From: Malacoraja senta
Taxonomy: Eukaryota
DNA: 64,000 nucleotides
Direction of reading: 5' to 3'
Assembly (NCBI GenBank): GCA_038087875.1
Contig: CM075995.1
Span: 3,412,001 to 3,476,000, forward strand
Part shown: positions 33,704 to 59,401 of the stretch, piece after piece
Numbering within the stretch: the first letter of the stretch is position 1
Layout of the letters: every line of letters starts with the position of its first letter
Notes under the pieces: generated by a model
Told to the model about the DNA's origin: nothing
The model's database searches: none
Seen by the model: only the letters and a program-made list of their open reading frames with translations
Translations under genes and position numbers: made by a program

Positions 33704-33939
33704 AAAATAGTAAGGTTAAACGAGAACTTACCAATTTGAAGTTTGATCTTTATTTTATGAGGAGTTACGTTGGTGATTACGTGAAGAAGTCCCGCCTGTG
33801 CGCATGCGCGTCAATCTTCAAAGCAGCGGTATGAAATCGCAGATAACAGAATATTTGAAGTAACATAGTAAGATCAGCAACATGAGAACTACCATATGAC
33901 CTTTATGAGAGAGAGGGTTGGGCGTGGTGGGCACGTAAT
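33704..33939 (-). mobile_element. DIRS right terminus (element A type)
   Basis: Reverse complement of the DIRS right end seen at 60690-60916. It contains a 34-nt ITR core identical to 55807-55840. Confidence 0.85.
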
Positions 33940-36900
33940 TGGATGGTTGCCCGAGTCACGGGCTGAACCAGCAATTCTATGTTAGAAATAACCATATTTC
34001 TATTATCATTCCCAACATCATCGGGAATCATGGCTGCATAGGCCAGTCACTACAAAAAATGGCTGAAGCGAGATTTTGCTGAATTTTTTGCAAGACCCGA
34101 CTGATGAGGCAAAATGGAGGAAGACGTTCCTCCCCAGTGTAGCGAGAATACATCTATCACCACTGCCATGCCACATATTTCACCAACATCCATTCTGTTT
34201 TGACATTGATTTTACGTGATGATACACCAGTGCCAAATGAGGTTAGGTAAACTATCACCGGATACTTTGACTTGATTGCACCCATGTGATTAACATATGA
34301 TTAACATATGACACCACCAAAGTGTATCAACTTGGACTTGAGCATGCAGATTATGCATATTCGCACAAAAACCTTTAACCCATAGAATGCACCTAGCGTC
34401 TATAGGTAGTTGATACCATATAACTGAAGAATTGGTAACTCATGCAAATCCCATCACCTCCGTAACTAGAGATGGTATTAGTAATTCCCCATCTTTGAAA
34501 CACTAGCATCAGTTTGTAATATAACTGAAGATTTACTGACGAAAAGTTAGTGGAGCAATGCTGAATACTGTTCGTCCACCATAGTGACTTTCATGGAGTT
34601 AAATAACGAGACCTACTTACCAGCGTCTCTAACTCCAGGTCCCTTACCTTTGCTGGAGTTCCAGTGAAATTTCATTCGCAGACTCTGTCCATGTTGTCAT
34701 TTCCATTAGATCGCTGATGCTGCACCAACTTCTCTTGTAGTGGCTAGTCTGTCTCCGACGGAGCAGCAATTTTAGAGGCAAAGCACACCGCTTTCCCTCA
34801 TGCGATTGTCGTGCATTATGCATTAAGCATGGGACCGCGGCACATAGTCATATTCGGGTTCCTGTTTGGAGTTAATCCATACTAACCTTAGACACTCTTT
34901 TTAGAGTGGGAGTAATTGCACCTGAACCAGGTGTCACCATCCGTATCCTCAATTTGTCTGTGCATGCCTCTGTACCAAACATGTTTTGCAACACCATCTC
35001 CCATGGTCTTATAATATATATGGCTCCATCTTCATCCTTTATACATCCGAATGGGAGGACCTATGCAACCTGAACCAGGGGCTGCCTCAACCATCTTCAT
35101 TCTTCATACATCCGAATGGGAGGACTTATGTAACCTGAACCAGGAGCTGCCTCAGGCAAGTGTGCATGTATTTTAGCACCATCTCCATCACTGCATTCAA
35201 CCTAATGGGAGGAATGGCAACCCTGAACCAGGCGTTGCTTCAGGCTCATGTGCATACTCCTGTAGCACTCTCTTTACCACTCCGTCATTTGAGTGGGAGG
35301 AAATTTGCAACCCTGAACCAGGAGCTGCTGCCTGACATGCCTTAAGATGGAGCGTTCTTTGACTGCGACAAGTCGCAATCTTGTCTGACATAGATGCCCA
35401 AGACTTGGCACTCACTTTGAGTTGGGATTGTCAGGTTGCTTCCTTCAGCAGCCACCAGGACTAGCTGTGCAAATCGATGCTCTGTTGGTATCCTCATTTC
35501 CCAAACAGGCTGCACTTGCTGGTGACTCCGAATCCTGCTCCTTTCCAATGCCAATGCAGTATACAGGGAAGGACTGGAGCGCCTCTGGCCCCCGTACGTC
35601 AGACATAGTGGGAGAAATGCTGGAACAAAAACCTGCCAGTTATTTGTCATGGGCAAAGACATTTACATGAATGAAGACGCCCATCCCAGTTAAATCAGAG
35701 ATTTGATTACTTTATTGATATGAATAAAGTCGGCGTCTTGGGGAAGAAACTTCCACAGTCCCTTTAATGAGCGGAATTACCATGACGCCACCATGTGTAG
35801 CTCGCACAGGTGACTGACAGATATAGCTCAACAAGGCTTTCCAAGCCAGGGATCTAGACCGCCATGGCAGGTCCGATTCTACTACACAATGTATTGGTGT
35901 AAGTGATAATAAAATTTCTCTCTTGGTTATGATAGTCACAACGTGACCTAGTGGCAACTATATAAATGCCCACCCTGTATAGCCATACTTTAAAAGAATA
36001 CACTATAACTAGTCCACACAACCCATGTTTCGGAAACCCAGACTCACGTACCTGCATAGTTACTGGTGGTCTTGAGGTAAGCCCAAAGGCCCCTGATGTA
36101 GGTTCCATTCCCGTCCTTGATTTGGAGGGTAGAACTGCCTGGGTGCGTGGATAGTATATTTTCCCTGAAGGCCAGCTTGGGCCTGGGCCTGAAGACCTCT
36201 GCCCACAGAATCAGTTTTCTGGCTGCTACCAGCTTTAGAGAAATGCTACTGCCATTGGAGACGTAAGGGTGATATTGCCGCTAGTAACGTGAGGGGAACT
36301 CAGGTCCCCCCCCCCCCCCCCCCCGGGTATTCTGGAATCTTATTCATAAATGTAGAATGTGCCCTGGACACACTTTCCGGGGTTGGGGTCAGTCACACAC
36401 TGACCCCTTGCACTCTCTCCACTGAGGGGAGATTAGTAAGCAGCCCTGAAAACAGGCGCTGCCGTAGTCCCCCGAGGACCTGCGCTGATATGGCCCTGAT
36501 TCGTGGATGGGTTAAACCCATATCAGGATGGGTTAAACGCCCGAGGACGTACCCTTAAATGATGGAGGGGAACCCTCCTGGCCGGGCTCGTCCAGCCTAG
36601 GCCTCTCCGACTCCGTATGGTTGCCCTCCTTTTGGGCTGCCGAAGTCGGGGTCGCTGACCGCACTGCCAGCGAGTTGGGTAGCGAACCCGACGGCCACCG
36701 GCTACTCGCTCTCGCACCGGCTACCGTAGCCGGCATCACCCGCAGTCTGAAGTACCCCGCAGCCCGAATAATAAAGCCCTCGGGAGTCGCTGACCACACT
36801 GTCAGCGACTCGAGCAGGAAACCCGACGGCCACCCGCTATCCGCTCTTCCGCGGTCCGTAGCCGTCATCCCCGCGGTCCAATTGGTTTCCCCGCGGTCTG

Positions 36901-37132
36901 ACCGGGTTTCGCCCGTATGCAATATCCAACAGGAAACTCTGCGAGAAGAGATTCCTGCAACAAAGGACAACCTGAGAAGTAAGTTCGAAACTTACCTGGA
37001 GGATTTGAAACTTACCGCTGAAGGAACAGCGCGCCTGCCAGCCAGTCGTTGCGCCATGCGTTAGACGTAATGACGCGCATGCGGGCTGGCGGATTCTTCG
37101 CGTAGTCACTCACGTGACTCCGAAGTAAAATA
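33940..37132 (-). mobile_element. DIRS retrotransposon 5' part (element B): left ITR, leader, decayed gag/pol
   Basis: Left end rc TATTTTACTTCGGAGTCACGTGAGTGACTAC. A decayed RNase H-like motif (QVD..., YVNHMGAIKSK) lies at about 34265-34345 and internal tandem repeats at about 34915-35345. Confidence 0.8.
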
Positions 37133-37938
37133 TGTTATGAAAATGTAAGTAAAAACATAGTGGAAGTATAATACAATGTAGAAATAGAATGCAGCAATTT
37201 CACAACAAACTGATCTACACTGTGGTTTGAGGAAACAGCTGAGAGTGGGGCTGTATCTGCACTAATTTTTTTTTTCAAATGAGACCCATTTACGTAGGTT
37301 CTTTTCATTGTGTTTGTTCCTTTCAGGTTAGCAACCTTATCTCCCGCTTGCAGCCCTTCCCTTCTATAGACACCTGCTGTCTTCTAAAAAAGACACCTGG
37401 ATATCTGGCCCACATCCTCTCATAAATATATATTACAATGGTTGCAGTTATTAAAAAGGAAATTGCCCTTTGCCCCACAGTGATGTATGCTCCATCGGTC
37501 TCCACAGTGCCGTGATCATTCATCGTTCAACCTCTCTGCTCTCGATAAGCTAACTGTGACCTTAAGTGACAATGTGACAAATTTCCTTTTTTGTTAGTGC
37601 GGCTGCCCTGGTTATTTACCAACCCTTTGTCCTTCCTCATTAACCCACATGCGCCACTGTCCACCCTGATGAGCTACGCATTAACAATTGAAATACTACA
37701 AATTCTGACCATTTGCTGAGCAGGCACCACACTTACTTAGCATTAAATGTGGAATATTTAAGGTTTGAGTGCAACGATGGCAAACCGCAGGTTTCTAGGT
37801 TTCAGTAATGTCACCAACAAGCAAGCTGGATTTGTTTTAATCGTTATTAAGGTAATGCACCCCTTTAGTCTAATGTCACCAAAGAAGAGAAGGTTTTTGT
37901 CGGCGTTCAATGGCTCCAGCAGAAATTGTCAGGATTTT

Positions 37939-38748
37939 ACATATACATCAATGTTCATTAAATGCCAGACACTCTTTAATACAATTTAAAGTACTACATA
38001 GATTACATTATTCTAAAACAAAACTAAACAGAATCTTCCCACATATCTCCCCTATCTGTGATAAATGCCAACATTTAGAGGCTAACCTAACTCACACATT
38101 CGCGAATTGTATAAAAATCAAAACATTTTGGACAGACATTTTTAGAATAATATCTATAGTTGTCAACACTCAATTGGATCCTGATTTAAAATTAATAATA
38201 CTAGTAATATCAGAACAAAGTCTAACACTTACAACAACCCAAAGAAACTTCATCGACTATAGTATAATAACTGGAAAAAAATTAATATTAAAATTTTGGA
38301 AAGATCCTATAACCCCCACAATTAAAATGTGGATTATGGAAATGTCGGAGACCTTACATTTGGAAAGAATCAGAATTGTCTTAATGGACAAACAAGAACT
38401 TTTTATCAGAACATGGTCTCCATTTATTGACTATTTGAAGGGACAGACTGGTTCGGCACGAGAACCTGACTGAAACTCGAATTAAGGATTAGATGAAAAG
38501 TTATATTTTAAAATTTACGAATATATCTCCAATGTTGTACTTTTAGTAATTTACTCCATTCTTCTTTATCATGTTTTTTCCCCTTCTTTCTTTTATTCTC
38601 TTATTTTCTACCTATATAAAAAAAAATTAAAAAATACTAGAAGCAGAGTTAATATCAATCGATAATATTGGTAATGTAGGAATAATATACATGAAATGTT
38701 TTCAATATGATATGTACCTACCTCTAATAAAAATATTATTAAAAAAAA
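37939..38748 (+). mobile_element. L1-clade LINE 3' fragment with TSD
   Basis: ORF HQCSLNARHSLIQFKVLHRLHYS...CDKC...HTFANC..IKTFW (L1 cysteine-rich domain), AATAAA and an A tail; 18-bp TSD AGAAATTGTCAGGATTTT at 37921-37938 and 38749-38766. Confidence 0.9.
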
Positions 38749-38918
38749 AGAAATTGTCAGGATTTTTTCTCCAGTTAGAGTCAAGAGTCAAGAGTGTTTT
38801 ATTGTTATATGTCCCAGATAGAATAATGAAATTCTTACTTGCAGCAGCACAACAGAATATATAAACATAGCAATCCGTAAACAGTATAGTAAACAATAAA
38901 AAAATAGTGCAGTGCTTG

Positions 38919-38961
<43 letters not shown>

Positions 38962-39477
38962 GTGTGTGTGTTTGTGTGTTTGTGTGTATGTATGTATCTT
39001 CTTAGGCCCCCTTCGGTCATGACTGGCCATGGGTGTCTCCAGGGTGATATTCCCTATATGGAGGACACCTGTGCGTGACTTTGTTTAACTTGGGGAGATA
39101 TATATGTATCTATATTACTAAAAGTCTGATCTTGACCGCTTTTGGCTCGCTGTGGCGTGATTTCCGAGAGAACGTCGCCACCTACGGCCATCATTTTTGG
39201 CCACTTCGCTCAGAGCCCCCCTCCCCCTTCCGGGACCGGAGGATTTTTCCCATCGATGAAAAATCATAGAGATATTAATGTTTTTACATTTTTTACCATT
39301 CCCTCTGCTGCCCCCGCTGGTGGGAGGGGGGAGGGACTATAAAACCCGGAAGTGGTGTGCCTCACTCAGTCTCTGCAAGGTGGAGGAAGCCTCAGGGTCA
39401 CGTCTCTCTGAATAACACTAAACACATGTCTACTCAACTGTGAGTGCCCTTAATGTGGTTTGAAAATGAAAATGTGG

Positions 39478-40352
39478 TTGGTTTGAAGTACAAATGCACT
39501 GCAAATGGTTGTTTGGGTGGGGTGTTTTGGGTTGAAGTGGGAATGCACTGCAAATGGCTGTTTGGTGGGGTGCTTTGGGTTGAAGTGGGAATGCACAGCA
39601 AATGGCTGTTTGGGTGGGGTGTTTTGGGTTGAAATGGAAATGCACTGCAAATGGCTGTTTGGGTGGGGTGTTTTGGGTAGAAGTGGGAATGCTCTGCAAA
39701 TGGCTGTTTGGGTGGGGTGTTTTGGGTAGAAGTTGGAATGCACTGCAAATGGCTGTTTGGGTGGGGTGTTTTGGGTAGAAGTGGAAATGCACTGCAAAAA
39801 TGCACTGCAAATGGCTGTTTGGGTGGGTTGTTTTGGGTTGAAGTGGAAATGCACTGCAAAAAAAGAATGCAAATGGCTGTTTGGGTGGGGTGTTTTGGAT
39901 TGAAGTGGAAATGCACTGCAAATGGCTGTTTCGGGGGTGTTTTGGGTTGAAGTGGAAATGCAGTGCAAATGGCTGTTTACGGGGGGGTTTGGGTTGAAGT
40001 GGAAATGCAGTGCAAATGGCTTTGGGTTGGTTTTGGGTTGAAGTGGAAATTCACTGCAAATGGCTGTTTGGGGGGGGGGGGTTGGTTGAAGTGGAAATGC
40101 ACTGCAAATGGTTGTTTGTGGGGAGGGGGTGGGCTGAAGTGGAAATGCACTGCAAATGGCTGTTGGAGGGGTTGGGTTGAAGTGGAAATGCACTGCAAAT
40201 GGCTGTTTGGGGGGAGGGTTTGGGTAGAAGTGGACATGCACTGAAATTGGCTGTTTGGGGGGGGGGGTGGATTGAAGTGGAAATGCACTGCAAATGGCTG
40301 TTTGGGGGGGTTTTAGGTTGAAGTGGAAATACACTGCAAATGGCTGTTTGGC
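39478..40352 (+). repeat. Minisatellite, ~48-49-bp unit, about 18 copies
   Basis: Unit GGGTTGAAGTGGAAATGCACTGCAAATGGCTGTTTGGGTGGGGTGTTTT. Confidence 0.95.
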
Positions 40353-40726
40353 TAAGCTGGACAACTTCCTGTTTGCACTATATTGATTTTAGATAAAACG
40401 CTACCACTTACGGCTGTGATTTTTGGCCATCTTTCTCAGTCCCCCTCCGCTCATCAGGTGCAGAGTATTCTTCCCATCAATGAATAATAAAAGTGTTATT
40501 AGTGTTTAAAAAATGTTGAGAATCTCTCTCCTGTGCATCACGCCATGAAGGCTACACCTTTTCCAGGGGGAGGGATTATAAAACCCGGAAGTGTGGGTGT
40601 GGCTCAGTCTCTGCATGATGGGGGAGGGAGAGGTCACGACTCCGTCTGAGCTGTGTATCAACTGAACACACTGAATGTCTACTGAACAGTGAGTGTGGTG
40701 TTTTGTGTGGTTTTATGGTGGGTTTA

Positions 40727-41222
40727 CCCTGCTTGAAATGGTATGAAACTGCATTTGAATGTGGTGCCCTTGCACCCTGCATGAAATGTTATGAAACTGC
40801 ATTTGAATGTGGTATCGTTGCACCCTGCATGAAATGGTATGAAACTGGATTTGAATTTTGTGGCTTTGCACCCTCCTTGAAATGGTATGAAACTGCACTT
40901 GAATTTGGTGGCCTTGCACCCTGCTTGAAGTGGTATGAAACTGCACTTGAATTTGGTGGCCTTGCACCCTGCTTGAAGTGGTTGGAAACTGCACTTGAAT
41001 TCGGTGGCCTTGCACCCTGCTTGAAGTGGTAGGAAACTGAACCTCAATTTGGTGGCCTTGCACCCTGCTTGAAGTGGTATGAAACTGCACTTGAATTTGG
41101 TGGCCTTGCACCCTGCTCGAAGAGGTAAGAAACTGCACTTAAATTTGGTGGCCTTGCACCCTGCTTGAAATGGTAGGAAAATGGATTTGAATTTGGTGGC
41201 CTTGCACTCTGCTTGAAATGGA
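40727..41222 (+). repeat. Minisatellite, 48-bp unit, about 10 copies
   Basis: Unit CACCCTGCTTGAAGTGGTATGAAACTGCACTTGAATTTGGTGGCCTTG. Confidence 0.95.
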
Positions 41223-41540
41223 ATTTTCAAGGAATAGCCGTGAGTCAACTGCCAGCCCACGAGCCGTGAGTGAGCTGCCAGCACATCATGCTTGAAGGAC
41301 TGAGCTGCCATCTCAAGAATCCATTTGGCCCACAATGTCCATACTAGCCCTCTGGAGACCAGTAGTCCCTGCAGCCAACAGCACCATTAGCAGCGCTCCA
41401 GAAAGCCCCCCCCCCACCCACCCCCCCCCCCACTGGCAACCAATATTGGAATTGGTGGAGAGGTGGAATATTGCGTCGGGGGACCAGCCCTCCCGTGTGA
41501 ACATGGGACCCAACGGGTCCCACTTAGTCTAGCATATATA

Positions 41541-41980
41541 TGTGTATGTATGTATCTTCTTAGGCCCCCTTCGGTCATGGCTGACCATGGGTGTCTCCAG
41601 GGTGCTATTCCCTATATGGAGGACTAATGTGCATGACTTTGTTTAATGTGGGGAGACGAGTGCACAAACAGCCACCCTACGGTCCTTAACAGATCTGGGT
41701 CAGGATCCAGCGGCATGGAGTCCAAGTTGACCGGAGACCCTTTTCTGCTGCAGCCTTCATTCACCTTCCCGGCCGTTGTGACGCTGCACAAAGGTCAACA
41801 TCATCCTCCGTCTGCTCCACTGTTGAGGTCTTGGTTCGTTTGCTCTTTGACAGAGACCTCCCCCTCGACCTTCCCGCCATAGGTGGCCCTACCAGGAGCA
41901 TAGCTCCAGACGGCATCGCTCTCAGGATCTTAGGTCCACACAAGCTTCTCCACCACGACAAGGTGACAATCCACTGAGTA
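41541..41980 (-). mobile_element. Bipartite non-autonomous RTE derivative (5' UTR joined to 3' end); a truncated sister copy lies at 38985-39098
   Basis: Reverse complement begins GTCACCTTGTCGTGGTGG...GCTATGCTCCTGGTAGGG (RTE/Expander-like 5' UTR) and ends GGGGCCTAAGAAGA(TACA)n; no ORF. Confidence 0.6.
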
Positions 41981-42144
41981 GGTATATATACAGTATATAT
42001 ATATATATACACACATACACATATATATGTGTGTATATATATATAAATGCACATGCACATATATGTATACACACATATATATACACATACACACACACAC
42101 ACACACGCACACGCACACGCACACGCACACACACACACACACAC

Positions 42145-42181
<37 letters not shown>

Positions 42182-42639
42182 AAAACAAACAAACAATAAT
42201 AGTGCTAAACGATAAAACCAATGTCCCTGAAGTTTATGTATCTATGTAGTTCAGAGTTTATTTGGAGGTTGCAGTGTTTAATAGCCTGAGAGCCAAAGGG
42301 AAGAAGTTGCTCCTGAACCTGGACGTTACAGGACGTAAACAAAACAAATCCTTGTTCAAAGGATGAAACTCACAGCACCAGGAAGGCAGATACGATGCTG
42401 GCATGAAAGGAGTGAAGCTTCTGCACATGATTGGATTCCAATCCAATTCAAAAGCATTGTCTTTTGTCCTGGAATGAGTATCTAAGCAATTGAATAACTC
42501 TTGTTTTCTGCACAATTAATTTTCATTCACAAAGAACAGCGTAATTGCAAATTTATCACTGTTGATGCTATTCATTTAGTCCATGAATAGTGTCTAAGAG
42601 CTGCTTTAGAGATTTGAGCCTGTAATAAAAATATACACA

Positions 42640-43176
42640 GAAACATAGACAATGGTGCAGGAGTAGCCATTCGGCCCTTTCAGCCAGCACCGCCATTCAT
42701 TATGATCATGGCTGATCATCCAAAATCAGCATCCCGTTCGTGCTTTTTCCCCATTTCCCTTGATTCCTTTAGCCCTAAGAGCTAAGAGAAACATATAAGA
42801 TTGTTAAGGGTTTGGACACGCTAGAGGCAGGAAACATGTTCCCGATGTTGGGTGCGTCCAGAACCAGGGACCACAGTCCAAGAATAAGGAGTAAGCTATT
42901 TAGAACAGCGACGAGGAAACACTTTTTCTCACAGAGAGTTGTGAATCTGTGGAATTCTCTGCCTCAGAGGGTGGTGGAGGCCTGTTCTCTGGATACTTTT
43001 AAGAGAGAGCTAGATAGGGCTCTTAAAGATAGTGGAGTCAGGGGATATGGGGAGAAGGCAGGAACGGGGTACTGAGTGTGGATGATCAGCCTTGATCACA
43101 TTGAATGGCGGTGCCGGCTCGAAGGGCCGAATGGCCTACACCTGTACCTATTGTCCTTTGTCTATTGTCTATTGTC
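42640..43176. mobile_element. Two CR1 3' ends back to back (minus 42640-42785, plus 42786-43176)
   Basis: Each carries the CR1 3' UTR; the plus copy encodes DTLEAGNMFPMLG...RVVNLWNSLP. Confidence 0.8.
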
Positions 43177-44149
43177 AAACCTGTACGTCCTTGGTGTGTG
43201 GGAGGAAACCGTAGATCTCGAAGAAAACCCACGCAGGTCACGGGGATAACGTGGAAACTCCATACAGACAGCACCCGTAGACGGGATCGAACCCGTGTCT
43301 CCGGCGCTGTAAGCGCTGTAAGGCAGTGACTCCACCGTGCCAAGTGTGACTGAAGTTTTCTTTGATACCGTTGGTTACTTGGATTTTCATGTCAGTAATG
43401 ATTTTTCCCAAAGAGCAAGACATCAGCTCATGAATGCTCAGTTTTCCTGCTTATTTGTTTGATTATTTTAATAAATCTGCAGCTTATAAGTGGCTGAAGG
43501 AACCATGTGTAGATGATATATGCATGTGCCTTTAACATAGTGACCTCATCACTACTAACCACTCCCCATATCACAAGTATAACTACAACCCCACCCACAG
43601 ATCGCTCTCTAGTTCCTGTGACAGACCACGTACAGCTAGTGCATTATGTAATGCTCCAGTATGAATAAAGATAGTAAAGTAACGATGTGTCATTATAGCT
43701 TCTTTACACCATGTAGGCTGTTAAATGTATCCAAACCGCTCTCCATCTGCCACTGCAGGATGCCATTTTGCCACCTTTACTTTAGACATTGGAAATATAG
43801 TATGGAAAGAGGCCCTTTGGCCCACCGAGTCTACGCTGACTATGATCACCCCGTACACTAGCACTATCCTAGACACGCTAGGTACAATTTACGATTTACA
43901 GAAGTCAATAATCCTACAAACCTGCATGTCTTTGGAGTGCAAGAGGAACCCAGAGCACCCACTTGTCTTGCCTTACAGCAGCAGAGACATGGGTTCGATC
44001 CTGATTACGGGTGCTGTCTGTACGGAGTTTGTACGTTCTCCCCGTGACCTGTGTGGGTTTGCTCCGGGTGCTCTGGTTTCTTCCCACACTCCAAAGGAAT
44101 ACAGGTTTGTCGGCTAATTGACTTGGTATGGTTGTAAATTGCCCCCCGT

Positions 44150-44975
44150 GGGCGGCGCGACTTGGTTGCAGCGGCCTCTGCAGTCCGTCTGTCTTTTTTA
44201 TTTTTTTTTGTTTCGTTTGAGTTTTGTTTTTAGTGTTTTTTTAACGGGGTATGTGTGGGGGGCGGGGGGCGGGGGGTAGGGAGGGGGAAACTTTTAAAAT
44301 CTTTTCCCTGCACGGGAGAACCGACCTTTCTCTGTCGGGTCTCCGTTGTCGTTGGGGCCTAGCACCGTGGAGCGGCCTCCAACCAGAACGACCTGGGGCT
44401 CCAGTCGCGGAGCCTGCGGACTTCTCACCATCGTGGAGCTGGCCGAGTTCGGAGCGGGAGGGGCTGTGGTGGCGCGCGGCTGCGACCCGACCCCGGAGAT
44501 TCGGAGGCTTCAGCCGCGGGACTGGTGGACGGTGACATCGGGAGCCCGCGGGTCCATGGTGGGAGATCGCTTTTCGGAGCTCCCGCAACGGCAGCTACTC
44601 CCGCCCAAGTTGCGGGGTTGAAGATGACCTGGAGCGGGGTCTGGCATCGCCTGGTGCGGCATTGGTGGCCGTGAGACTTGCTGGCGCTACCGGGGGCTAC
44701 AACATCAAGACCCGGAGCGGGGTCTGGCATCGCCCGGCGCGGCTTTGGTGGCCGCGGGATATGTTTACAGTCGCCCGCCGGGGGCTTTGACTCTGACATC
44801 GGGAGGAGAATGGAGTGCAGGGGAGAGATAAGACTTTGCCTTCCATCACAATGAGGAGGATGTTTGTGTAAATTGTGTTGTGTCTTTTTTAATTGTTTGT
44901 ATGACTGCAGAAACAGAATTTCGTTTGAACTTAGATTCAAACGACAACAAACAAATATCTAAATCTAAATCTAAA
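44150..44975 (+). mobile_element. CpG-rich non-autonomous retroelement (same family as 9271-10126), nested in a SINE
   Basis: Shared blocks CTGTCGGGTCTCCGTTGTCGTTGGGGCCTAGC and AAGACTTTGCCTTCCATCACA; (ATCTAA)n tail. Confidence 0.75.
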
Positions 44976-47469: not shown

Positions 47470-47935
47470 AGTTATAGGAGTAGAATTAGGCCATTCAGCC
47501 CATCGGGTGTACTCCACCATTCAATCATGGCTGATCTCTGCCACCTAATCCCATTTTCCTGCCTTCTCCCCATAACCCTTGACACCCATTCTATTCAAGA
47601 ACTTGTCCTTCTCTGCTTTAAAAACATCCACTGACTTGGCCTCCACAGCCCTCTGTGGCAAACATCTTCCACATCCACTCTATCGATGCCTTTCATTATT
47701 CTGTAATTTTCAATCAGGTTCCCCCTCAACCTTCTAAACTCCAGCGAATAGAGGCCCAGTGCTGTCAAACGCTCATTATATTCTAATCCACTTTACTGGA
47801 ATCATTCTTGTAAACCTCCTCTGCACCCTCTCCAGAGCCAGCACATCATTCCTCAGATATGGGGCCCAAATTTGCTCACAGTACTCCACATGTGGCCTGA
47901 CCAGCGCCTTATAGAACCTCAACATTACATCTCTG
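47470..47935 (-). mobile_element. CR1 3' fragment
   Basis: CR1 3' UTR plus reverse-complemented LVRPHVEYCEQIWAPY-type coding remnant. Confidence 0.8.
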
Positions 47936-47960
47936 TTCGAAACACATTACTCCACCATTT

Positions 47961-49517
47961 TGTAGGTATGTTACAATACTTACCTTCAGCGGCGCTGCAA
48001 TTCTGCCACTGGCCATGCGCGCGATTTTGGCGCCTTTAAGGGGGGGGGGCGGGGTTAAAACGCGGGTTTCTCCTACCTTGTCCTGTATTCTATTTCGTTG
48101 GAGTGCCAGCTTTTGCTGAAAAATTGTTCCGACGGGCGTTTTGTGTGTTTTTTATTTTTATTCGATCGACAATGTCAGCGCTGGAGTCATTTTAAAATCA
48201 GCTTCGAAAGCCGTCAATGCCGACAACGGGGACGGATTTCACGCACAGGACAGGTAAACGAAAGCAGTTTATTTTATGTATAAAAGTGCTTCTTAAGAGG
48301 CCTTTAATTCACATTTTTTAATGCGAAACAGTGATTCTTTTCCCCAAACTAACGGCAGAATTTTTCATGCCGATACGGGGTTAAATTCACCGCAAATCAA
48401 CGTTCCAAATGATCGCGTTCCAGAAAATCCCACTCGCAAGATGATTTAAATGCCCATTAATTTACAGGTGTTAAACATTAAATTCCTTCCATTTGGCCTG
48501 TAAATCCATGACAATGAGATTTAAAAATTATGTTATATTGTGAATTCTTGTGTGAATGTTATTTGGACACTTAGGCTATTTAAAAATGTTAATCTATTCT
48601 TAAGAAATTGATAGATGTTTAGATCTAGTAATTGAATTTTGTAATTAGCTACAATTAGGTAACTAATGGCTCTGTCTCACGATGTTGCGGTCATTGGCGG
48701 TGAAGAGCGGCATCGGTGGAAGAGGGGACCGCACGTCAACCCCGAGAGCGCCGAGTACGGCCGGTCCCACGAGCTTGCGGTGTCATAGAAAATAAAGCAA
48801 GCGGGGCTGTGGTGGCGGTAGTGCTGATCGCGGCGCCCGTGCCGCACACGTGCCTCACTGGCGGAGGCTGTGGCAATGAGAGTTCCACTCACGGCGCTCA
48901 TGCTGCACTGGCGGCGGCTGTGGCGGTGACCGTGCCTCACTGGCGGCGGCTGTGGCGGTGACCGTGCCTCACTGGCGGCGGCTGTGGCGGTGACCGTGCC
49001 TCACTGGCGGCGGCTGTGCGGTAAGAAATTATTTTTCAACAGTGCTGACTTTTTGTGAGGCACGTGTGCCTCGGCGGTGGGCGTTTGACCGAACCCACGT
49101 TCTCTGGCGGTCCACGAGCGGTAGATACTTCCTGTATCACCGCCAATGACCGCAGACTCGTGAGACAGGCCTTTAACTAATTATATGCTTTGTTTTCATG
49201 TCATCTAAGTAAGATTGTTTCATATTTGTTTCAGTATGCTTCAATCTATAATAACTGAAAATTTCTTTCAGTTCTCTTAATTTTTAAGAAAGTTATGGGC
49301 TTTTGACTGTCCTCGATCACAGCTTTTGTGCTAAGTCAATGGAAAAGCAATAGGGAACAAGATGCTAATTTCCGAGTATGAAAATGGTCATAACCTTTTT
49401 AATACTGAAGATATGAAAGTGAATTATGTGTCAAATTAAACATCTTTTTATGCTTTATCTGATGGGATAAATTACAGACTTGATTTTTTAATCTCAAAAT
49501 TTTGTAACATTGCTACA
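47961..49517. mobile_element. Unclassified non-autonomous TIR DNA transposon
   Basis: Ends TGTAGGTATGTTACAA / TTGTAACATTGCTACA split the PLE-remnant sequence CCATTTTGTGTCTATC. The duplication reads as TTT, or as ATTTT if the termini are GTAG/CTAC. Confidence 0.65.
48667..49173. mobile_element. PIF/Harbinger-type MITE nested in the TIR element, with an internal 31-bp GC-rich tandem repeat (~48890-49020)
   Basis: TIRs CTGTCTCACGA..TGCGGTCATTGGCGGTGA / TCACCGCCAATGACCGCA..TCGTGAGACAG; TAA TSD at 48664-48666 and 49174-49176. Confidence 0.8.
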
Positions 49518-49974
49518 TTTTGTGTCTATCTTCTATGCCCTTTGTAATTTGCTTCACATGGAAAGCAAGGAACCCTACACCAAGGATGCACTTTTAAACC
49601 TCCCGCCCCCCCACCCATCCCTGACCCCATGGTTTGACCCCATGAACCCTATATTATGACCGATTTTCCATGGGTCATGGCACAGACACTGCCATTGTCT
49701 GTCCAGCAAACTTATAAAGTCTTAAAATCTTTAAAAAAGAATAAACTCCATGATTTCTTGAACCAAAATGTCTCCGTTACACAATTTATCAATCGCATTA
49801 TCTGCAACAAACCATTGCCCCCACCCTATGTTGTATTTAATGTCTCTCAACATCATTTGAGATTGGTGATTTATTGGTAAAATCCAAAAATCAGTTATTT
49901 CAAATGAATATTCAATTTCAAATGTTATTTCAAAATATTATTTTGAATTATTTCAAATATATGTTTGATTTGGA

Positions 49975-50915
49975 AGTCAGGAGTCAAGAGTCAAGAGTGT
50001 TTTATTGTCATATATCCCAGATAGGACAATGAAATTCTTACTTGTTGCAGCACAACAGAATATGTAAACATAGTACATAACGGAAGGAAAAAAAAGTTCA
50101 GTGTGTATATATACACATGCACACATACTCAATAAATAAACAAATATAGTGCAATAATAATATTAGTCTGTTATAGTTCAGAGCTTATTTGCTGTCGTGT
50201 TTAATAACCTGATCGCTGCAGGGAAGAAGCTGTTCCTGAACCTGGACGTTACAGTTTTCAGGCTCATGTACCTTCTTCCCGATGGCAACGGTGCAACGAG
50301 TGTGTCGCCAGGATGGCGTGGGTCTTTGATGATGTTGGCCGCCTTTATGAGGCAGCGTCTTCGATAGATCCTTTCGATGGTGGGGAGGTCAGAGTCAGTG
50401 ATGGACTGGGCAGTGGTCACAACTTTTTGCAGTCTTATCCGCTCCTGGATGTTGAAGTTGCCAAAACAGGCCACGATGGAGCCAGTCAGTAAGCTCTCTA
50501 CTGTGCACCTGTAGACTTTCAAGAGAATCCTCCTTTACATACCGACGCTCCGTAATCTTCTCAGGTATAGAGGTGCTGATATGCCTTCTTTATAGTTGCA
50601 TTTGTGTGCTGGGTCCAGGAAAGATCTTTGGAAATATGCACACCCAGCAATTTGAAGTTTTTGACCCTCTCCACCATCGTCCCATTGATATTAACAGGGT
50701 TGTGGGTCCTCATCCTTCCCCTTTCAAAGTCCACAATCAGTTCCTTGGTTTTGCTGATGTTGAAAGCCAGGTTGACAAAAATGCTGGAGAAACTCAGCGG
50801 GTGCGGCAGCATCTATGGAGCGAAGGAAATAGGTAACGTTTCGGGTCGAAACCCTTCTTCAGGTTGTTGTGCTGGCACCATTTGGTCAATCGGTCGATCT
50901 CACTTCTATTCCAAG
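49975..50915 (-). mobile_element. Rex1/Babar LINE 3' fragment with a PLE remnant inserted at about 50772-50862
   Basis: NISKTKELIVDF...VKNFKLLGVHISKDLSW and YRCTVESLLTG...KDPRHPG...LPSGRRY; (TTGACTC)n tail. Confidence 0.88.
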
Positions 50916-51819
50916 TATCTATTGTGCTTTTCCAGTATCTCATTTCAAATGGTGATTCTCCTTCTTCCATTTATATCTCTTCCAGGTCAATTTTTTGTTC
51001 CTTTGTTTGTTCCAGAGCAGATTAGTACTTTACTTTTTGGCCTTGCCTTTTGTCATTCAGTCCCCCAATCTCATTCCCAACCTTTATCCTCTCGCGCCTC
51101 TTCCAGCGCCAGAGACCAGGGTTCAACCCTGTCTATAAGAGTTGTCTGTATGGAGTTCATACCTTCTCCCCATGACCACGTGGGTTTTCTCTGGGAGCTC
51201 TGGTTTCCTCCCACTTTCCTAAGACGTACAGGTTTGTAGGTTAATTGGCTTTGTTAAGAATTGGAAATTGTCCCTAGTGTGTAGGATGGTGCCAGTGTAT
51301 GGGGATAGCTGGTTGGCACAGACATGGTGGGCCGAAGGGCATGCTTCTCTAAACTAAACTAAATTAAACTAAACTGAAACCTAAGATAGACACAAAATGC
51401 TGGAGTAACTCGAAGGGACAGGCAGAATCTCTGGTGAGAAGGAATGGGTGACGTTTCGAGTTGAGACCCTTCTGCAGACTGGGTTCTTATCTCCACAGTT
51501 GCAGCCGGTCCGGCAGATTTACTCCAGCATTATGCTTCTACCTTTGGTTTAAACTAGCATCTGCAGTTCCTTCCTAAACTGTGCATCTCAAACCACTCCC
51601 AGTTCTCATGGAAGGTTGTTTACCTGAAATGTTGACTTAGTTTCATCCTTCACTGATGCTGCCTGACCTGCTGAGCATCCTCAACATTTTATCTGTTCAA
51701 CCTCTATGTTCCTCTCTGTGTCCGACTGTTGAGTAGAAAATGATGAACACGTGAACAAGTGCTCTTGTGATATCCACTAGGCTCCGACTGAAATCACTCT
51801 CAAACTATCCAGCATATAT

Positions 51820-52670
51820 GACAAGGCAAGAGACAAGATACATTTATTGTCACATGTACCAATTGGCACAGTGAAATTTGTGGTCACCATACAGCCATAC
51901 GAATAAAATAAAGAACACAGAACACAGAACACAATAGTCTTTAACATTAACATCCCCACACAGCGGTATTAAAGTTTCCTACTGTGAGGGAAGGCACCAA
52001 AGTTCAGTCATCCTCCTCTGTTGTTCACCCGTGGTCAGGGCCTCCCGAGACCTCCGTAGTTGCCGCTACGGGCGGCCCGATGTTCAGGCCCGCTCGCCGG
52101 GATGATGGAACTCCAACGTCGGGACGGGAGAACATCCTCAGTGGCTTAGACCTCCGAATCGGCCACTTCTCACTTCGTCCACGGCTCCCAAAGTCCACAG
52201 GCCGAGCTGGGCGGAGATTCAATGCTGGCGACCCCCGGCAAAGGGTCCCAGGACTCCGCGATGTTGGTCAGCGCCGCCCGCGCTGGAAGCTCCGCGAACC
52301 ACAGCTGCAGCAGGCCCAACACTCCGGAGCTTCAAACGGCGATCCAGGAAAGGCATCGCCTGCTCCGCGATGAATCCAGTGCTGCACCGCCGCTGTAGCT
52401 CTGGTCTAGTCTCTGGTCTCCGGCAGGAAAGGCCGCGCCAATCCAGTTGGTAGGCCACGAGAGGGGGGCGAGGACGCGACTCGGAGAATAGTCGCGTCCT
52501 CGCCAGGAAATGACTGGGAAACGGTTTCCCCCTTACCCTACCCCTCTCCCCCACATAGAAATACTTTAAAAAATCCTCCAGAACATACTTTTAACAAACT
52601 ATTTTTTTTTTTAAAGATAGAAAAACAAACAGACTGTAGGCAGAGGCTGCCATCATGCGCCGCCCCTAGA
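51820..52670 (-). mobile_element. CpG-rich non-autonomous retroelement, related to 9271 and 44150 in its 5' region
   Basis: rc 5' GGGGCGGCGCATGATGGCAGCCTCTGCCTACAGTCTG, a T-rich spacer and GGGG..GGGGGAAAC; 3' AATTTCACTGTGCC...GTGACAATAAA with a repeat tail. Confidence 0.6.
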
Positions 52671-52837
52671 GGCCACTGTTCTTATACTCAGTACCCCTCA
52701 GCAATACCACAAAAGCCTTTAAAATTCACTTTGACTTTTGAGTTCATAGCTTATAAAAAGGAAGAGACACTAGATGATGCAAAATATTGGTAACTCAGTG
52801 TGTCAGGCAACACCTTGTTTCGTTTTTAGTTTAGAGA

Positions 52838-53525
52838 CTAGACTAGGGGACGCGTTGGGTCCCAGCATCACACGGGAGGGCTGGTCCCCCAATGCAATAT
52901 TCCACCTCTCCACCAATTCCAATAATGGTGGCCAGTGGGGGGGGGGGGGGGGCTTTCTGGAGCGCTGGTTTGGGTATTGTGGGCTGAAGGGACTGGTTTC
53001 CATAGGCCTAGAATGGACATTGTGGGCCAAATGGATTCTTGGGCTGGCGGCTCAGTCACTCAAGCCTGTTGTGCTGGCAGCTCACTCACTCATAGCTGGT
53101 GGGCTGGCAGTTGACACGGCTATTCCTTGAAATTCCATTTCAAGCAGGGTGCAAGGCCACCAAATTCAAGTGCAGTTTCATACCATTTCATGCAGGGTGC
53201 AAGGCCACTAAAGACAGGGAGTCGTGACCTCTCCCTCCTCCATCTTGCAGAGACTGAGCCACGCCCACACTTCTGGGTTTTATAGTCCCTCCCCCCTCCC
53301 CCCAGAAGGGGCGTGACCTTCATGGCGTGATTGACAGGAGAGAGAATCTCAACATTTTTTAAACACTAATAACTCTTTTATTTTTCATCAATGGGAAAAA
53401 TCCTCGGCACCTGATGAGCAGAGGTGGAGTAAGATGGCCAAAAATCACAGCCGTACGTGGTAGCGTTTTTTCTGAAATTAATATAAAACAGGAAGTGGTC
53501 AAGATCAGACTTTTAGTAATATAGA
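52838..53525 (-). mobile_element. Non-autonomous Helitron (short form), inserted at an AT site in a SINE tail
   Basis: rc reads A|TCTATATTACTAAAAGTCTG...GGGACCCAACGCGTCCCC...CTAG|T. Removing it restores TTAGAGA|TACC of the SINE. Confidence 0.88.
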
Positions 53526-53592
53526 TACCGTGAGGAAACATCGGCCCACCGAGTCCAAGCTGACCAGCAAACCCCCTACACTAACACTATCC

Positions 53593-53760
53593 AAGGGGGT
53601 CAAGGAAAGAGCGTTCATGTCGTGACCCTGTTTTCACCAATCTTTCCATCACCACGCACAAGAAGCACAAGACAGACACCATTGGATGCAGATGCTGAGA
53701 AGTGTGTTCAGCTCTGGCTGACAAACTACTAATCTTGTGTGTGGACTAGATAAGAAGAAG
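53593..53760 (+). mobile_element. 5'-truncated non-LTR retroelement 3' end (clade uncertain)
   Basis: TAAGAAGAAG tail; 8-bp TSD CACTATCC at 53585-53592 and 53761-53768 inside a SINE. Confidence 0.65.
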
Positions 53761-54859
53761 CACTATCCTACACATGAGGAACAATTTATAATTTTTACAG
53801 AAGCCAAATTTACCTACAAACCTGTACGTCTTTGGAGTGTGGGTGGAAACCAGAGCACCCGGAGAAAACGCTCACAGGTCACAGGGTGAACGTACAAATT
53901 CTGTAAACAGCCAGCACTTTAGTACGTCTTTGGAATGTTGGAGCACCCGGGAAAGCCACACAAGGTCACAGGGAGAACGTAGAAACTCAGTACTTACAAC
54001 ACTCGTAGGCAGGATCGAACCTGGGTCTCTGGTGCAGTAAAGCAGCAACACTACCTCTGTGACACCGTGCCACTCTCAAAGAGAGTGAATCTTTGGAAAA
54101 TGGTTCAATGGCTCATTGGCGCTTTATTGTCATGTGCGCACTGCTCAGTGAAACTCTTTTTGCTTATACATCACGCATGCACGATTCGCTATATTTTGGT
54201 GCCATTTACAAAAAAAAGTCCGGTCCAGTCCCGTGCTCGATGTACTTGTCGATTCATGTCGGGATTCTTCTTCAGATTGATCATAGGGTGGGGCAGGAGC
54301 AAGCTGGGAGAGAGCAGATAGATACAAAAAGCTGGAGTAACTCAGCGGGACTGGCAGCATCTCTGGAGAGAAGGAATGGGTGACATTTCGGGTCGAGACC
54401 CTTCTTCAGACTGAAAGTCAGGGGAAAAGGAAACAAGAGATATAGATGATGATGAAGAGAGATCAAGAGCAATGAATGAAAGATATGTAAAAAAGTAACG
54501 ATGATAAAGGAAACAGGCCATTGTTAATTGTGGGCTAGGTGAAAATTAGTTATTGACAATGAAACTCAACAAGATGACTTTGAAGCAAATAAACTTATTT
54601 CAAAAATGTTCTGTGTACATTCGTAAGGGTTGTGACCTAGATTTTGGGATTTGTGAATGTAACTTACGCTACATCTCATGCAGCTGAGTACAAAAACTCT
54701 CTGAAAAGCTTGTTCGAAGTTCAATAAGGAATTCCAGCACAGGAAACAAAATAAAACTCAATCATTATGCTCTTGATAAGACTATTTTCAGAAAGTTCTT
54801 AAGTGTGGGGAGTGGGGAAATAGGAAAAATATTAAAAACTGAATATTTATATTGGTTAT

Positions 54860-55042
54860 AGACACAAAATGCTGGAGTAACTCAGCAGGTCGGGCAGCAT
54901 CTCTGCAATCTGAAGAAGGGTCTCGACTCGAAACGTCACCCATTCCTTCTCTCCGGAGATGCTGCCTGTCCTGCTGAGTTACTCCAGTATTTTGTGTCTA
55001 CCTTCGGTTTAAACCAGCATCTGCAGTTCTTTCCTACAACCA
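54860..55042. mobile_element. Fold-back PLE-derived mini-element with a hammerhead-like core (54910-54937)
   Basis: ~45-bp inverted arms flank CTGAAGAAGGGTCTCGACTCGAAACGTC; 15-bp TSD ATTTATATTGGTTAT at 54845-54859 and 55043-55057. Confidence 0.8.
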
Positions 55043-55174
55043 ATTTATATTGGTTATTTCAACGGAAAATACCAAATATTATTTTGTTTTTTGTATTATA
55101 GGCAAGAATGCAAGTATCGGCAGTCAGACAAATCGAAATGTCTAGCACCTGAAATATATGCACTGAAGCTCTGA

Positions 55175-55562
55175 CCTCCCTTCCATCGAGGGGATCTACC
55201 ACAGTCGCTGCCTCAAAATGGCTGGCAGCATCATCAAGGACCCACACCATCCTGGCCACACACTCATCTCCCTACTACCTTCAGGTAGAAGGTACAGGAG
55301 CCTGAAGACTGCAACGACCAGGTTCAGGAACAGCTACTTCCCCACAGCCATCAGGCTATTAAACCTGGCTCGGACATAACACTGAACTTTACTAGCCAAT
55401 ACTGTTATTTGCACTTTATCAGTATATTGACCATTGTGTATATATTTATAGAATGCCTTGTAGTAAATGCCTGCTATGTTCTGTTGTGCTCAAGCAAAGC
55501 AAGAATTTCATTGTCCTACCAGGGACACATGACAATAAACTCACTTGACTTGACTTGACTTG
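55175..55562 (+). mobile_element. Rex1/Babar LINE 3' fragment
   Basis: IIKDPHHPGHTLISLLPSGRRYRSLKTATTRFRNSYFPTAIRLLN; (TTGAC)n tail. Confidence 0.85.
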
Positions 55563-56046
55563 CACATAGCAAAATACTTTTCCACACAGCTTTTCCTTCA
55601 GGTTTTCCCTGGTTTCTTCCCTGGCCCCATGAATTTACTTGCACACAATAAATTTCTCCATGCCGGTGGCATGTATCCGAATATTATAGATTGGAATGTA
55701 AAACATTTTGTATCAGCTAGTCCCTTAGTTTCTTAACTTTCCCTGGACTTCCAAAGGACACATAAAGGTTTAGGCTTATTTTACTTCAGAGTCACATGAG
55801 TGATTCCGTGAAGAAGTCCCGCCTGTGCGCATGCGCGTCATATCGTCGTTCGCATGGCGAAGCACCGGACTGGCAGGGCATCGCTCCTGCCGACGGTAAG
55901 TTGAAACCTACAGGTAATTTTTTTATTACTTACCAGGTTTAATGTTCGTGCAGGAACCTCTCTTCACAGAAGTATCCTGCAGGATTTGGCGAAGTCCACG
56001 AGTGGACCGACTATGGGCTGTGGGGAGACCCCAGTTCTGACCGCGG

Positions 56047-56083
<37 letters not shown>

Positions 56084-56193
56084 GGAGAGTCAAATGCAAC
56101 GAAATTTCGTTCTAGGTGCACTGTGTATAGGTGTATATCTGAATGACAATAAAGTTTTCATTCATTCATTCATTCATTCATTCATTCATTCAT
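56047..56193 (+). mobile_element. Extreme 3' end of the Rex1 family at 31820-33011, inserted into the DIRS leader
   Basis: A-run, then CTGGAGAGTCAAATGCAACG...GACAATAA and (TTCA)n; near-identical to about 32916-33011. Confidence 0.9.
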
Positions 56194-56490
56194 AATCAGG
56201 TTGTCGCGTTCGCGTTTAAAGCCACTGACAAAGCGGTCAGTGGTTTAAATCCTGCTGTGGTTCCCGGGGTCGGTTGAACACGCAGGGAGGCGGGGTTAAC
56301 GCCAGAGTCGCTGACATTACGGTCAGTGGCTCACGGAATCGTCTTTCTGTGGGCCCCAGGCATGGGGTGAGAGCACAGATTAAATCAAACAGCCCTATTG
56401 AACTCGGAGGAGTTGGGCTGAGAGGGTTTCCCTTTCAGAAATAAGTATGAATTTGTATGCATTCTGTTGTTATTTTTTAACCCTTCACAG

Positions 56491-56750
56491 GCACCAGCGC
56501 AGGCCCATGGTACAGGCCACGCCAGCAGCCCTTGGGACAGGGCTGCTTAGTGTATGAGCGCGGGCCTATGGTACAGGCCGCACCAGCAGCACCTGGGACA
56601 GGGCTGCTTAGTGTGTGAGCACGGGCCTATGGTACAGGCCGCACCAGCAGCACCTGGGGCAGGGCTGCTTAGTGTGTGAGCGGGCCTATGGTACAGGCCG
56701 CACCAGCAGCACCTGGGGCAGGGCTGCTTGGTGTGTGAGCGCGCTAGCCG
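56491..56750 (+). repeat. ~60-bp tandem repeat x4 inside the DIRS leader
   Basis: Unit GGGCCTATGGTACAGGCCGCACCAGCAGCACCTGGGGCAGGGCTGCTTAGTGTGTGAGC. Confidence 0.9.
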
Positions 56751-56866
56751 CATTGTCGCACGGAGGCTGTGAAGATTTAAATCTCCAGGTAAGTGCCACA
56801 AACTTAGCTGGAGTTCGGGTTGTTTTGCTGTGGTGCCGTGCTGTATATTTCTTCCAGGACAACACC

Positions 56867-57850
56867 ATGGACAAGACGACCAAGGGAAAGAGGCAAGCCG
56901 CAAGAAAATTGGTAGACAGCCGCGGGAGTGGGGTCTGTGAACAGCTGCCTCATACCCCTGCACAATTGCCGGCCGGGAGCGGGGCGACTGAAGACTTGGT
57001 GCTGCAAAGCACAGAGCCAGCGCCAGTCGGGCATAAGGCCACGAGCAAGTCTGTTAGGCCCACTGACTCGGCAGAGTCAGGAGCGGAGAATTCCTCTCCG
57101 GGGCTGGATATCCCAAGGGTTCAAGGGTTATCCCAAATGGAGCACCTTTTGCATAGGTTGTTCCCCAAGGGCACACTCCAGGAGCAGGAGTAGTGTCGGC
57201 GGCAGGCTGGAGAAGAGGCCGCGCCAGCAGCACCTAGTAGAGGGCTGCTCGATAGCACCCTCATTAATGAGGCGCGTGCAATGGGTCAGCTGAGTTCTGA
57301 CCCCGACTCTGACGGTGAGTTCAATCCAGGCGAAGACGGCAGCTGCCAGATGTCCCATTCCTGGCAGTACGATTCACTGTTCCGTCAGAGTCAGGAGAGG
57401 CACTGGGAGATGAGTAGGCCTCCACGATAAATTACTTAGTCTCCCATCAGCTACAGGAGCTCACGATGGATGAGACCGCAAAGAAGCATGAGGCCCCGGG
57501 GAACTGCGTGTTGCTTAAGGTGCCGGCAGTGAACCAGGTGATATGGGGTCAGGTGAGCTGCAAGAATCCTGAAGCTGCTGGGCTCAGAATCACTGCGTTC
57601 GCTAGAACGATCGATGGAGGGCAGCTGTCCGAGACGCAGCAAGGTTAAGCCTCCGGTGGTCGGCAAATCTGAAAAAAGGAGGTATCCCTACAAGAGAGGT
57701 GCAGATTCCGGGTTTGGACCAGGAACAAGCCGGCCGTCAACTCAGATACGCAGCTGGCACTCTGCAGCTCCAAGGATGAACGGCATTTTGGCGACAACGC
57801 ACCCTATGCCTTCATCAGCAGTGGGCAGTTCACTGAAGCTGGTGGCAGCA
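56867..57850 (+). pseudogene. DIRS gag-like ORF1 remnant
   Basis: Kozak-like ACCATGG start, a low-complexity N-terminus and a P-x-N-C...P-x-VN-xx-IW motif; interrupted by stops. Confidence 0.55.
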
Positions 57851-59401
57851 TGACAGCTGGGCACAGGTTCCACGTACCCTACCAGTCCTACTCAACAAGG
57901 TGGGTCCGGCACTTCCGAAACATGGGTAAGTGGACCACTCACAAGTAGGTAATATTTACACTTGTTTGTACAGCATACAAAGGATAAAAGCATTGTCATC
58001 TGCTTAGAGGGCACAATACTAGCATTCCAAGCAAGTTTGGAATTAGGGCCAGAATTGTCGTATTCAAGACAGGCTCGAAAATCGTGCAAAGTACCCATGG
58101 AATGATGGCAGGAGTGGCCTGTTCATTATGAAAAATGGAGAATGTCGTTTAACTGTACTAATAACAGTAAAACATTGCAAAATGGGATAAACTATATTCC
58201 GAGGGTATTCAACTAATTATTAAATCGGTGTTTGGACTCAGAGTTCGAAAACACTTGTTATATCTGGTCTGTATGATATTTCTAACGCTGTATTTTGTTA
58301 AAATCACCGGTTCAGTCTCAAACTATATTTGAGAAATTGGGCTCATCCATCCAGCTAACTTAAGTTGTTACCAAATAGACTTGTTGGTCATTGGAATTTA
58401 CCTTTAACTATTCATTAGTTATGACTCCGCCATGGGGCACGAGATTGGAGTTAATAGAAACCTGTTATAAAGCTGAATTCTATTAATGTAGAGTATCGGC
58501 AATATAGTAGCTGTGAGTCAGCTGTGCAAGTCGGGGAACTGACATCGTGCAAAGTAGCAATCTCTCAAATGACATGTGGGTGATTGTTAACTGGCTTATG
58601 CTATGACCAGCTGAAGCTACCTAAGTCACAATGATGAACAAACAGTATTCAGCATTGCTCCAGCTAAGTGCTCTAAGAGGGGAAATTGCGAATGTCATCT
58701 CTAGTTGGTGGAGATTTGCATGAGTTGCCAATTCTTCAGTTGTTGGTATCAACTACCTATAGACGCTAGACGCATCCCATGGGTAAAGGGCTAGTGAGCG
58801 AATACATAATCTACAAGCCCAGCTTCATGTTGATACACTACGGTGGTGGCAGATGTTAGTCACATGGCAATCAAGTAGTATCCTGTAATATTTACCTAAT
58901 CCCTTGCCACTGGTTTAACATCAAGTTCAGATTCAGGACAACACAGAATAAGTGTTGAATCACAAAGTATTTATGAAAATATGGTTCAGCGGCCAGGGCA
59001 ATGGATATTCCCATCAACCATCTCCTCGTGGCCGCAGGATGGTCAAGGTTAGTTTCGAAAAAATGTTTTTCCATAGACTGATTGCCGACCCAGGGCTAGT
59101 TGCCCATTCTGTTTTACATTCAAATCTTAGCCTCCCCTGAGATAGACGGGTTGCTATTGATTTATTTATTCACGTAAACCATTAATACGTTTAAATCAAT
59201 GTCATGGTTAATCCATTGTTGATTATTCACTCATCCTGAGTTAATCGATGCAGTGAGACGCCGGGATTTGAATCTACGGCATGAAATCACAGAGCTTTGA
59301 ACTCTTCACGGAATCACTCACGTGACTCCGAAGTAAAATAGTAAGATTAAATGAGAACTTACCAGTTTGAAGTTTGATCTTTATTTTATGAGGAGTTACG
59401 T

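Follow-up and report, generated by a model that had tools for sequence, protein, structure and literature searches.

Two retrotransposons of the DIRS1-like type have exchanged their 3' parts in a 64,000-nucleotide stretch of the genome of Malacoraja senta, referred to here as the window (assembly GCA_038087875.1, contig CM075995.1, positions 3,412,001 to 3,476,000; G000:C19:3412001-3476000 in the 1.94-Gb assembly of 6,182 contigs that served as genome background). The two elements are called A and B. The best explanation is a real 25.5-kb inversion produced by end joining of two breaks, and this explanation is very probable. To judge from the DNA sequence, the reciprocal swap is real in this assembly rather than a family trait, and the junctions are not chance joins.

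Exchanged parts of two DIRS elements

The features by which DIRS elements are recognized are drawn from PMC3266345, PMC7192593 and PMC13465315. The copies studied here resemble the DIRS1-like elements of PMC3266345 and PMC7192593 in their inverted termini, in an ICR (internal complementary region) complementary to both ends, and in a right extension. They also share an ATT terminal trinucleotide, the absence of a target-site duplication, and nesting in other DIRS copies. They differ in that the window copies are degenerate, no reverse transcriptase was detected in them, and each bears the other's 3' part.

Four pieces are distinguished: A5 (55777-59401, + strand), A3 (33704-33939, - strand), B5 (33940-37132, - strand) and B3 (59402-60919, + strand). 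ITR stands for inverted terminal repeat, ORF for open reading frame, and SINE and LINE for short and long interspersed nuclear elements. The parts are as follows.

33940..59401 (25,462 bp): putative inverted segment, limited by two reciprocal chimeric junctions
33704..33939, - strand: 3' terminus of A (inner ICR end, terminal loop, right ITR, extension), with its outer flank retained; about 97-99% identity to A-type copies
33937..33941, - strand: junction J1 (5' part of B with 3' terminus of A; microhomology of 2 nt); unique in the genome
33940..37132, - strand: 5' part of B (left ITR at 37132, degenerate ORFs, pol C-terminus); 92-95% identity to B-type copies
37133..55776: host DNA inside the inversion (SINE and LINE remnants, tandem repeats, short unique stretches)
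55777..59401, + strand: 5' part of A (left ITR, ORF1 remnant, pol remnant, ICR at 59303-59401); about 97% identity to A-type copies
56049..56192, + strand: LINE 3' fragment with a poly-A / TTCA tail, inserted in A; not in A-type copies
59401..59402, + strand: junction J2 (5' part of A with 3' part of B; microhomology of 1 nt), whose B side begins at a DIRS integration crossover position; unique in the genome
59402..60919, + strand: 3' part of B (pol end, degenerate tyrosine recombinase at 59650-60382, ICR at 60583-60695, right terminus)

In intact copies the ITRs are inverted. In the window, the A-type ITR core at 33780-33813 is identical to 55807-55840 over 34/34 nt and lies in direct orientation, and a B-type motif is found at 37077 and 60817 on the same strand. 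The pairs are direct because of the swap. Both pairings had been proposed in an earlier, sequence-only reading of the window; the B pair does match, but more loosely than the A pair (79% over 63 nt).

The ICRs can be assigned in the same manner. The ICR ending at 59401 fits the left end of A (55777) at 36/38 nt, compared with 34/38 for the left end of B (37132). Conversely, the ICR at 60583-60620 fits the B left end at 36/38 and the A left end at 33/38. Matches of each ICR to the left end and to the right end with its extension are 36/38 and 64/67 in A, and 36/38 and 79/82 in B, whose 3' part has 82-bp inverted arms. The predicted continuation of the ICR from 59401 to 33939 is confirmed in A-type copies, although 5 nt intervene when the copy is intact. 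The pol frame is split as had been described: the frame with LLVQPVT ends at 33940, and NSLTCRL* comes after 59402.

Other copies of the family join the pieces in the un-swapped order, as the sequence-only reading had predicted. Individual copies in the genome served for comparison with the pieces. Searching with B3 produced 42 matches, drawn from 40 scored candidates, and returned 10 loci; in all nine outside the window, B5 lies upstream of B3. The nine best other copies are 92-96% identical to B3. Among 20 longer sequences, taken from the best matches, B5 precedes B3 in 10/10 and A5 precedes A3 in 8/10. The remaining two A copies have a second, antisense DIRS at the ICR, and in L062/L077 the host A3 resumes past a nested element of 5.2 kb. 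Each junction 24-mer matches the genome once when as many as 2 mismatches are allowed (control 0). With up to 1 mismatch, the intact B site is found 805 times. The same chimeric joins are thus found in no other copy in the genome. Compared with these copies, the limits of the segment (33940-59401) and the non-homology of the breakpoints hold. Re-inverting the segment was expected to rebuild two coherent elements. The order of the parts is restored; both copies are degenerate, and they are therefore coherent in order only.

The halves of B also rank their relatives alike (Spearman 0.87, n=9), with a value of 0.67 for the piece nearest the junction. Those of A do not (rho -0.31, p 0.31, n=13), but A copies lie at almost equal distances from one another and the 3' piece measures only 236 bp. 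The copies compared were best matches to one half, and thus close relatives rather than a random sample.

Junction accounting was likewise made from single copies, with overlapping loci counted as fetched. Intact A copies have five more bases between the positions corresponding to 59401 and 33939, and these bases are identical in 33 of 37 regular-expression matches. Intact B copies have a 12-base stretch between two CAAT-like words (15/19 matches). The event removed 11 bases from B and 5 from A, with a net loss of 19 nt overall. Microhomology is 2 nt at J1 and 1 nt at J2, and there is no insertion or duplication. The word CAATT, to which attention had been drawn, does occur at both junctions, but it is not a shared or duplicated site: since in intact B copies CAAT flanks the stretch missing here on either side, its presence is coincidental. 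A duplication from a staggered cut was also considered for CAATT, and is ruled out by the loss of 11 nt from B and 5 from A.

The break in A falls at the inner ICR end, about 67 nt from the ICR circle junction, and the break in B at the end of pol, at the pol-recombinase boundary. On the element map the two are about 1 kb apart, which excludes homologous recombination and bears out the earlier statement that this is not simple ectopic recombination. No homologous crossover with full-length chimeras is found. Instead, both breaks lie in same-family elements of opposite orientation, and the junctions are non-homologous with little microhomology, as in inversions bounded by transposable elements (TEs). 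A clean recombinase crossover would involve exchange within the 3-bp junction of both partners without loss of bases, and this pattern is seen at the B end of J2 alone.

Models for the origin of the probable inversion

The model that best accounts for these observations is end joining of two breaks. In this model, the DIRS1-like copies A and B would first have inserted in head-to-head orientation, separated by about 18.6 kb. Two double-strand breaks would have followed, that in A at the inner extremity of its ICR/terminal hairpin arm, the other in B at the pol/recombinase boundary. Finally, the 25.5-kb middle piece would have been rejoined backwards by end joining, with 2 and 1 nt of microhomology and 19 nt lost on balance. 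The event probably took place in the chromosome rather than in the assembly, and the inversion appears to be younger than both insertions.

Both reciprocal products are present, and their ends agree to within 5 and 11 nt. A complete ICR is required for DIRS retrotransposition (PMC7192593). The product that joins B5 to A3 does not have one, and so could not have arrived alone. In human genomes, 103 of 493 events are rearrangements that have both breaks in TEs but at non-homologous positions (PMC9675761).

What caused the breaks is a separate question. Ordinary damage has about an even chance of being the trigger. Another possible, though less probable, trigger is the DIRS recombinase itself. 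Here, a tyrosine recombinase acting in trans would have attacked a target in B, and an aborted integration would have left a break. B would have been cut at a proven target base and joined to a break at the conserved motif on the ITR/ICR boundary of A. This is a subset of the end-joining inversion, with the second break in the A terminal region, possibly within the same complex. The sequence-only reading had allowed for aberrant recombinase action, and the analysis lends it partial, post hoc support at the B break, with no significant target at the A break.

A target matrix was built from host flanks only (33 right ends and 23 left ends). It reads roughly (g/t)-A-T-T-w-T-A-y and agrees with the ATT junction of PMC3266345. 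The J2 cut is the best-scoring site among about 9,500 strand-positions of the intact B copy L067, and in L068, one base shorter at this point, it falls in the top 0.3%. A sliding null of the same break geometry gives p values of 0.0023-0.019 over four matrix widths and three B copies. The value for the top site against AT-rich windows is 0.009-0.018. Other nulls are less favorable, at 0.033 for any good site and 0.09-0.17 for any good site among AT-rich windows, should breakage prefer such DNA. The idea of a target motif was moreover formed after the sequence had been seen.

The same base has been used by a DIRS element elsewhere. A B-like copy on C13 has a clean, two-ended nested insertion at the exact J2 base, as does a copy in C5736. 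Because the two places are 97-99% identical, they count as one insertion event. Three further right ends in host DNA share the first seven flank bases. Together these make up five of seven site matches, the other two not being DIRS. No trimming is seen at the B end of J2, a short motif common to both ITRs and both ICRs overlaps the A break (a post hoc observation; the motif is described in PMC3266345), and both elements are young, about 3-4% from their relatives.

Several results speak against the recombinase as trigger. As a target, the A break does not reach significance (p 0.08-0.29), and no nested left ends were found at the A site. One insertion event among 805 intact B sites does not make a hot spot. 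Recurrent aberrant breakage at the B site was considered and rejected: in the genome, the only match in which the B 3' part is joined to foreign sequence at the J2 base is the window itself. The product is also not a clean crossover, as bases were lost and the joins are left to left and right to right; the lost B bases are deduced from relatives.

Nested DIRS elements were encountered in other places as well. In L077:1116-6373 (G000:C6), the ICR circle junction of an A-type copy is the exact insertion point of a different DIRS in antisense, after which the host 3' terminus resumes. This is a clean recombinase crossover with a chromosomal ICR, in which no bases were lost. In L063/L078 (G000:C2625), the ICR of an A-type copy appears to abut a second DIRS, tail to tail, within a nested cluster. 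At L093:3863-8614 (G000:C1), an antisense DIRS interrupts a B-type copy some 330 bp upstream of the J2 site. At the J2 base itself (L089-L091; G000:C13 about 1741800-1751170, and C5736), C13 carries two tandem nested elements and C5736 one. The identity of 97-99% between the two places points to a haplotig or duplicate that differs by an insertion. Pfam matches for reverse transcriptase and recombinase are retained in the first nested element.

A replication-based model is unlikely. In this model, a fork stalled at the long terminal hairpin of A, and the template was switched twice. The intact A terminus does fold as an 80-bp stem (-99 kcal/mol, z -13.8) with the A break near the loop end of the stem, and short microhomology is compatible with template switching. 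The hairpin is present in every copy, however, and no other copy examined is broken there. Two-break end joining fits better than template switching because both reciprocal joins are present, deletions are small, and there is no templated insertion or duplication.

An assembly artefact, in which the segment is inverted in the assembly alone, is slightly less probable still. Several observations that weigh against a real inversion are best considered here. J1 lies only 518 bp from a scaffold gap of 200 N (33222-33421, 282 bp left of the A right end). The next gap is at about 76,858 in window coordinates, so the contig spans only about 43 kb (33422 to about 76,857). Four sequencing runs were compared with 33422-38000, and no contig bridges J1 among the 32 pieces listed of about 119,000. 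The best run contig (37108-37968) reaches 25 nt into B, where 31 are needed to count as a bridge. The best-matching run, which may be the source of the assembly, differs from it by three gaps in 864 bp without substitutions, suggesting indel errors in the assembly. A contig from a relative (37234-37938) stops 100 bp short of the B left end, and neither an empty insertion site nor the orientation in an outgroup was seen.

Repeat mis-joins occur at homologous positions, and neither they nor read chimeras produce reciprocal joins at non-homologous sites. The junctions here share 1-2 nt, and both lie inside one contig, with J2 26 kb from its start. Two chimeras of independent origin would not fall within 5 and 11 nt of being reciprocal. 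The absence of a J1 bridge is also expected, since contigs drop rare variants in high-copy repeats. Part of 37133-37937 is present in 20 sequencing runs. A look for older repeats split by the insertions does not tell the two possible flank pairings apart: the inner flanks (37133-37937 and 55565-55776) are single-copy and do not continue the repeats of the outer flanks, and either pairing yields a plausible DIRS target.

Finally, ectopic homologous recombination, a clean ICR recombinase crossover, or a chimeric A/B family inserted twice is highly improbable: the elements did lie inverted with 80-bp arms about 95% identical, and a clean ICR crossover does occur in this genome (L077), but about 1 kb separates the breaks on the element map, the crossover in L077 falls at the circle junction, about 67 nt away from the A break, and neither join occurs elsewhere in the genome. 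Nesting of a third DIRS at the B site, with subsequent homologous recombination with A, was rejected because two further precise deletions would be needed.

Degeneration and age of the two copies

A and B belong to different DIRS1-like subfamilies that are about 80% alike where they can be aligned. In A, about 950 bp of the recombinase region are missing (deletion at 58988/58989), and in B about 105 bp near 34181. The LINE fragment in A, at 56063-56177, is 97% identical over 115 bp to 32897-33011. The latter is the 3' end of a LINE with a reverse transcriptase ORF at 31661-32869.

Coding remnants were located by tblastn with ORFs of related copies. This places the C-terminal, RH/MT-like part of pol at 34581-33998 (-), ORF1-like matches at 57346-57829, and the recombinase at 59650-60382 (+). 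A related copy with PF00589 above the cut-off matches 59754-60382 (E 2e-30) and also a 28-residue recombinase remnant in A (58986-59069). Pfam applied to the window ORFs alone gave no tyrosine recombinase match. Two reverse transcriptase fragments from a related copy bearing RVT_1 gave no tblastn match in A or B at E 1e-3, and the two elements are therefore classed as non-autonomous or decayed derivatives and not as complete members. A sub-threshold Dam match in a related copy (E 0.002) maps to 34166-33998; RNase H was not identified by the profile library.

At right ends, the terminal A is followed by TT in 31 of 33 cases, and then by variable sequence. The flanks of DIRS ends show no longer repeat by eye, so that the 3-bp circular junction occurs without target-site duplication.

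A differs from its relatives by 3.2% on average, and B from its nearest relative by 3.6%. The self-templated repeats of the two elements differ at 5/105 and 5/120 bases, and in one related organism 19 of 708 bases differ in the unique DNA. Taken with the divergence of the elements, this last figure suggests that both insertions are roughly as old as the split from that organism.

A third, more distant DIRS copy (73-80% identity) lies about 35 kb to the right of J2 (L052:1759-6483) in the normal arrangement. The DIRS terminal sequences at 33728-33880 and 37094-37132 have a summed contig depth 4-5 orders above that of unique DNA in all four runs, and far above that of the element body. Summed depth is not copy number, and short terminal DIRS derivatives may be abundant.

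Related rearrangements and the surrounding DNA

The inversion belongs to a class of events already counted in human genomes; what appears to be unusual is a break on a DIRS integration base. A close match is the class TEMR-NHE (PMC9675761), in which both breaks also lie in same-family elements of opposite orientation, with non-homologous junctions and little microhomology. There, the elements are Alu and L1 in humans rather than DIRS, and TE-bounded inversions have a median length of 2.5 kb versus 25.5 kb here. The present case is also read from one assembly without a reference allele.

Reciprocal inversions and translocations caused by L1 ORF2p (bioRxiv 10.1101/2024.12.14.628481) resemble the recombinase model, in that an enzyme cuts its target and the ends are exchanged by end joining. 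Those events have cDNA inserts and short duplications. Neither is found here, and the enzyme would be a tyrosine recombinase.

Another parallel is provided by Antarctic fish, where DIRS1 hot spots lie at chromosome fusions and breaks from DIRS transposition are proposed to promote rearrangement (PMC5941688, PMC6387122). That case is cytogenetic, based on fluorescence in situ hybridization (FISH), and invokes ectopic recombination, whereas the window holds a local inversion resolved to the base, at non-homologous sites. A causal link from DIRS to rearrangement is hard to show (PMC6387122). A break on the DIRS integration base makes the proposal of DIRS-driven rearrangement testable, by way of reciprocal split halves. 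No base-resolved, non-homologous inversion between two DIRS elements was found in the literature covered, which excluded most subscription journals; supplements could hold a precedent.

If the recombinase did start the event, this would be an example, resolved to the base, of an animal chromosome rearranged without homology by the recombinase of a retrotransposon. Split DIRS copies would then give a reference-free count of such events genome-wide. The lead offered by the integration base comes from one event, and it is as a lead that the local inversion has value.

No function is evident for the inversion, which lies in repeat-rich DNA where no gene was found; SINE and LINE remnants are dense across the window. 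Pfam searches covered 83 and 108 window ORFs, selected out of 243 in unmatched DNA and a few long ones, and gave LINE domains and one weak zinc finger only; short exons would escape. The same limit applies to 143 of 248 ORFs in 100 kb of neighboring DNA, which contained no host protein domain. An Rfam scan gave no RNAs in the segment or in this neighboring DNA. The C2H2 zinc-finger match (29886-30062, +) is below the cut-off, with PDB matches at E 0.05 or worse, and presumably represents a LINE ORF2 tail rather than a host exon.

Within the segment, an 84%-identical repeat forms an inverted pair (40357-41532 and 52838-53503), one copy of which has a 48-bp tandem expansion. At 39478-40351 there is a tandem array with a 49-bp unit.

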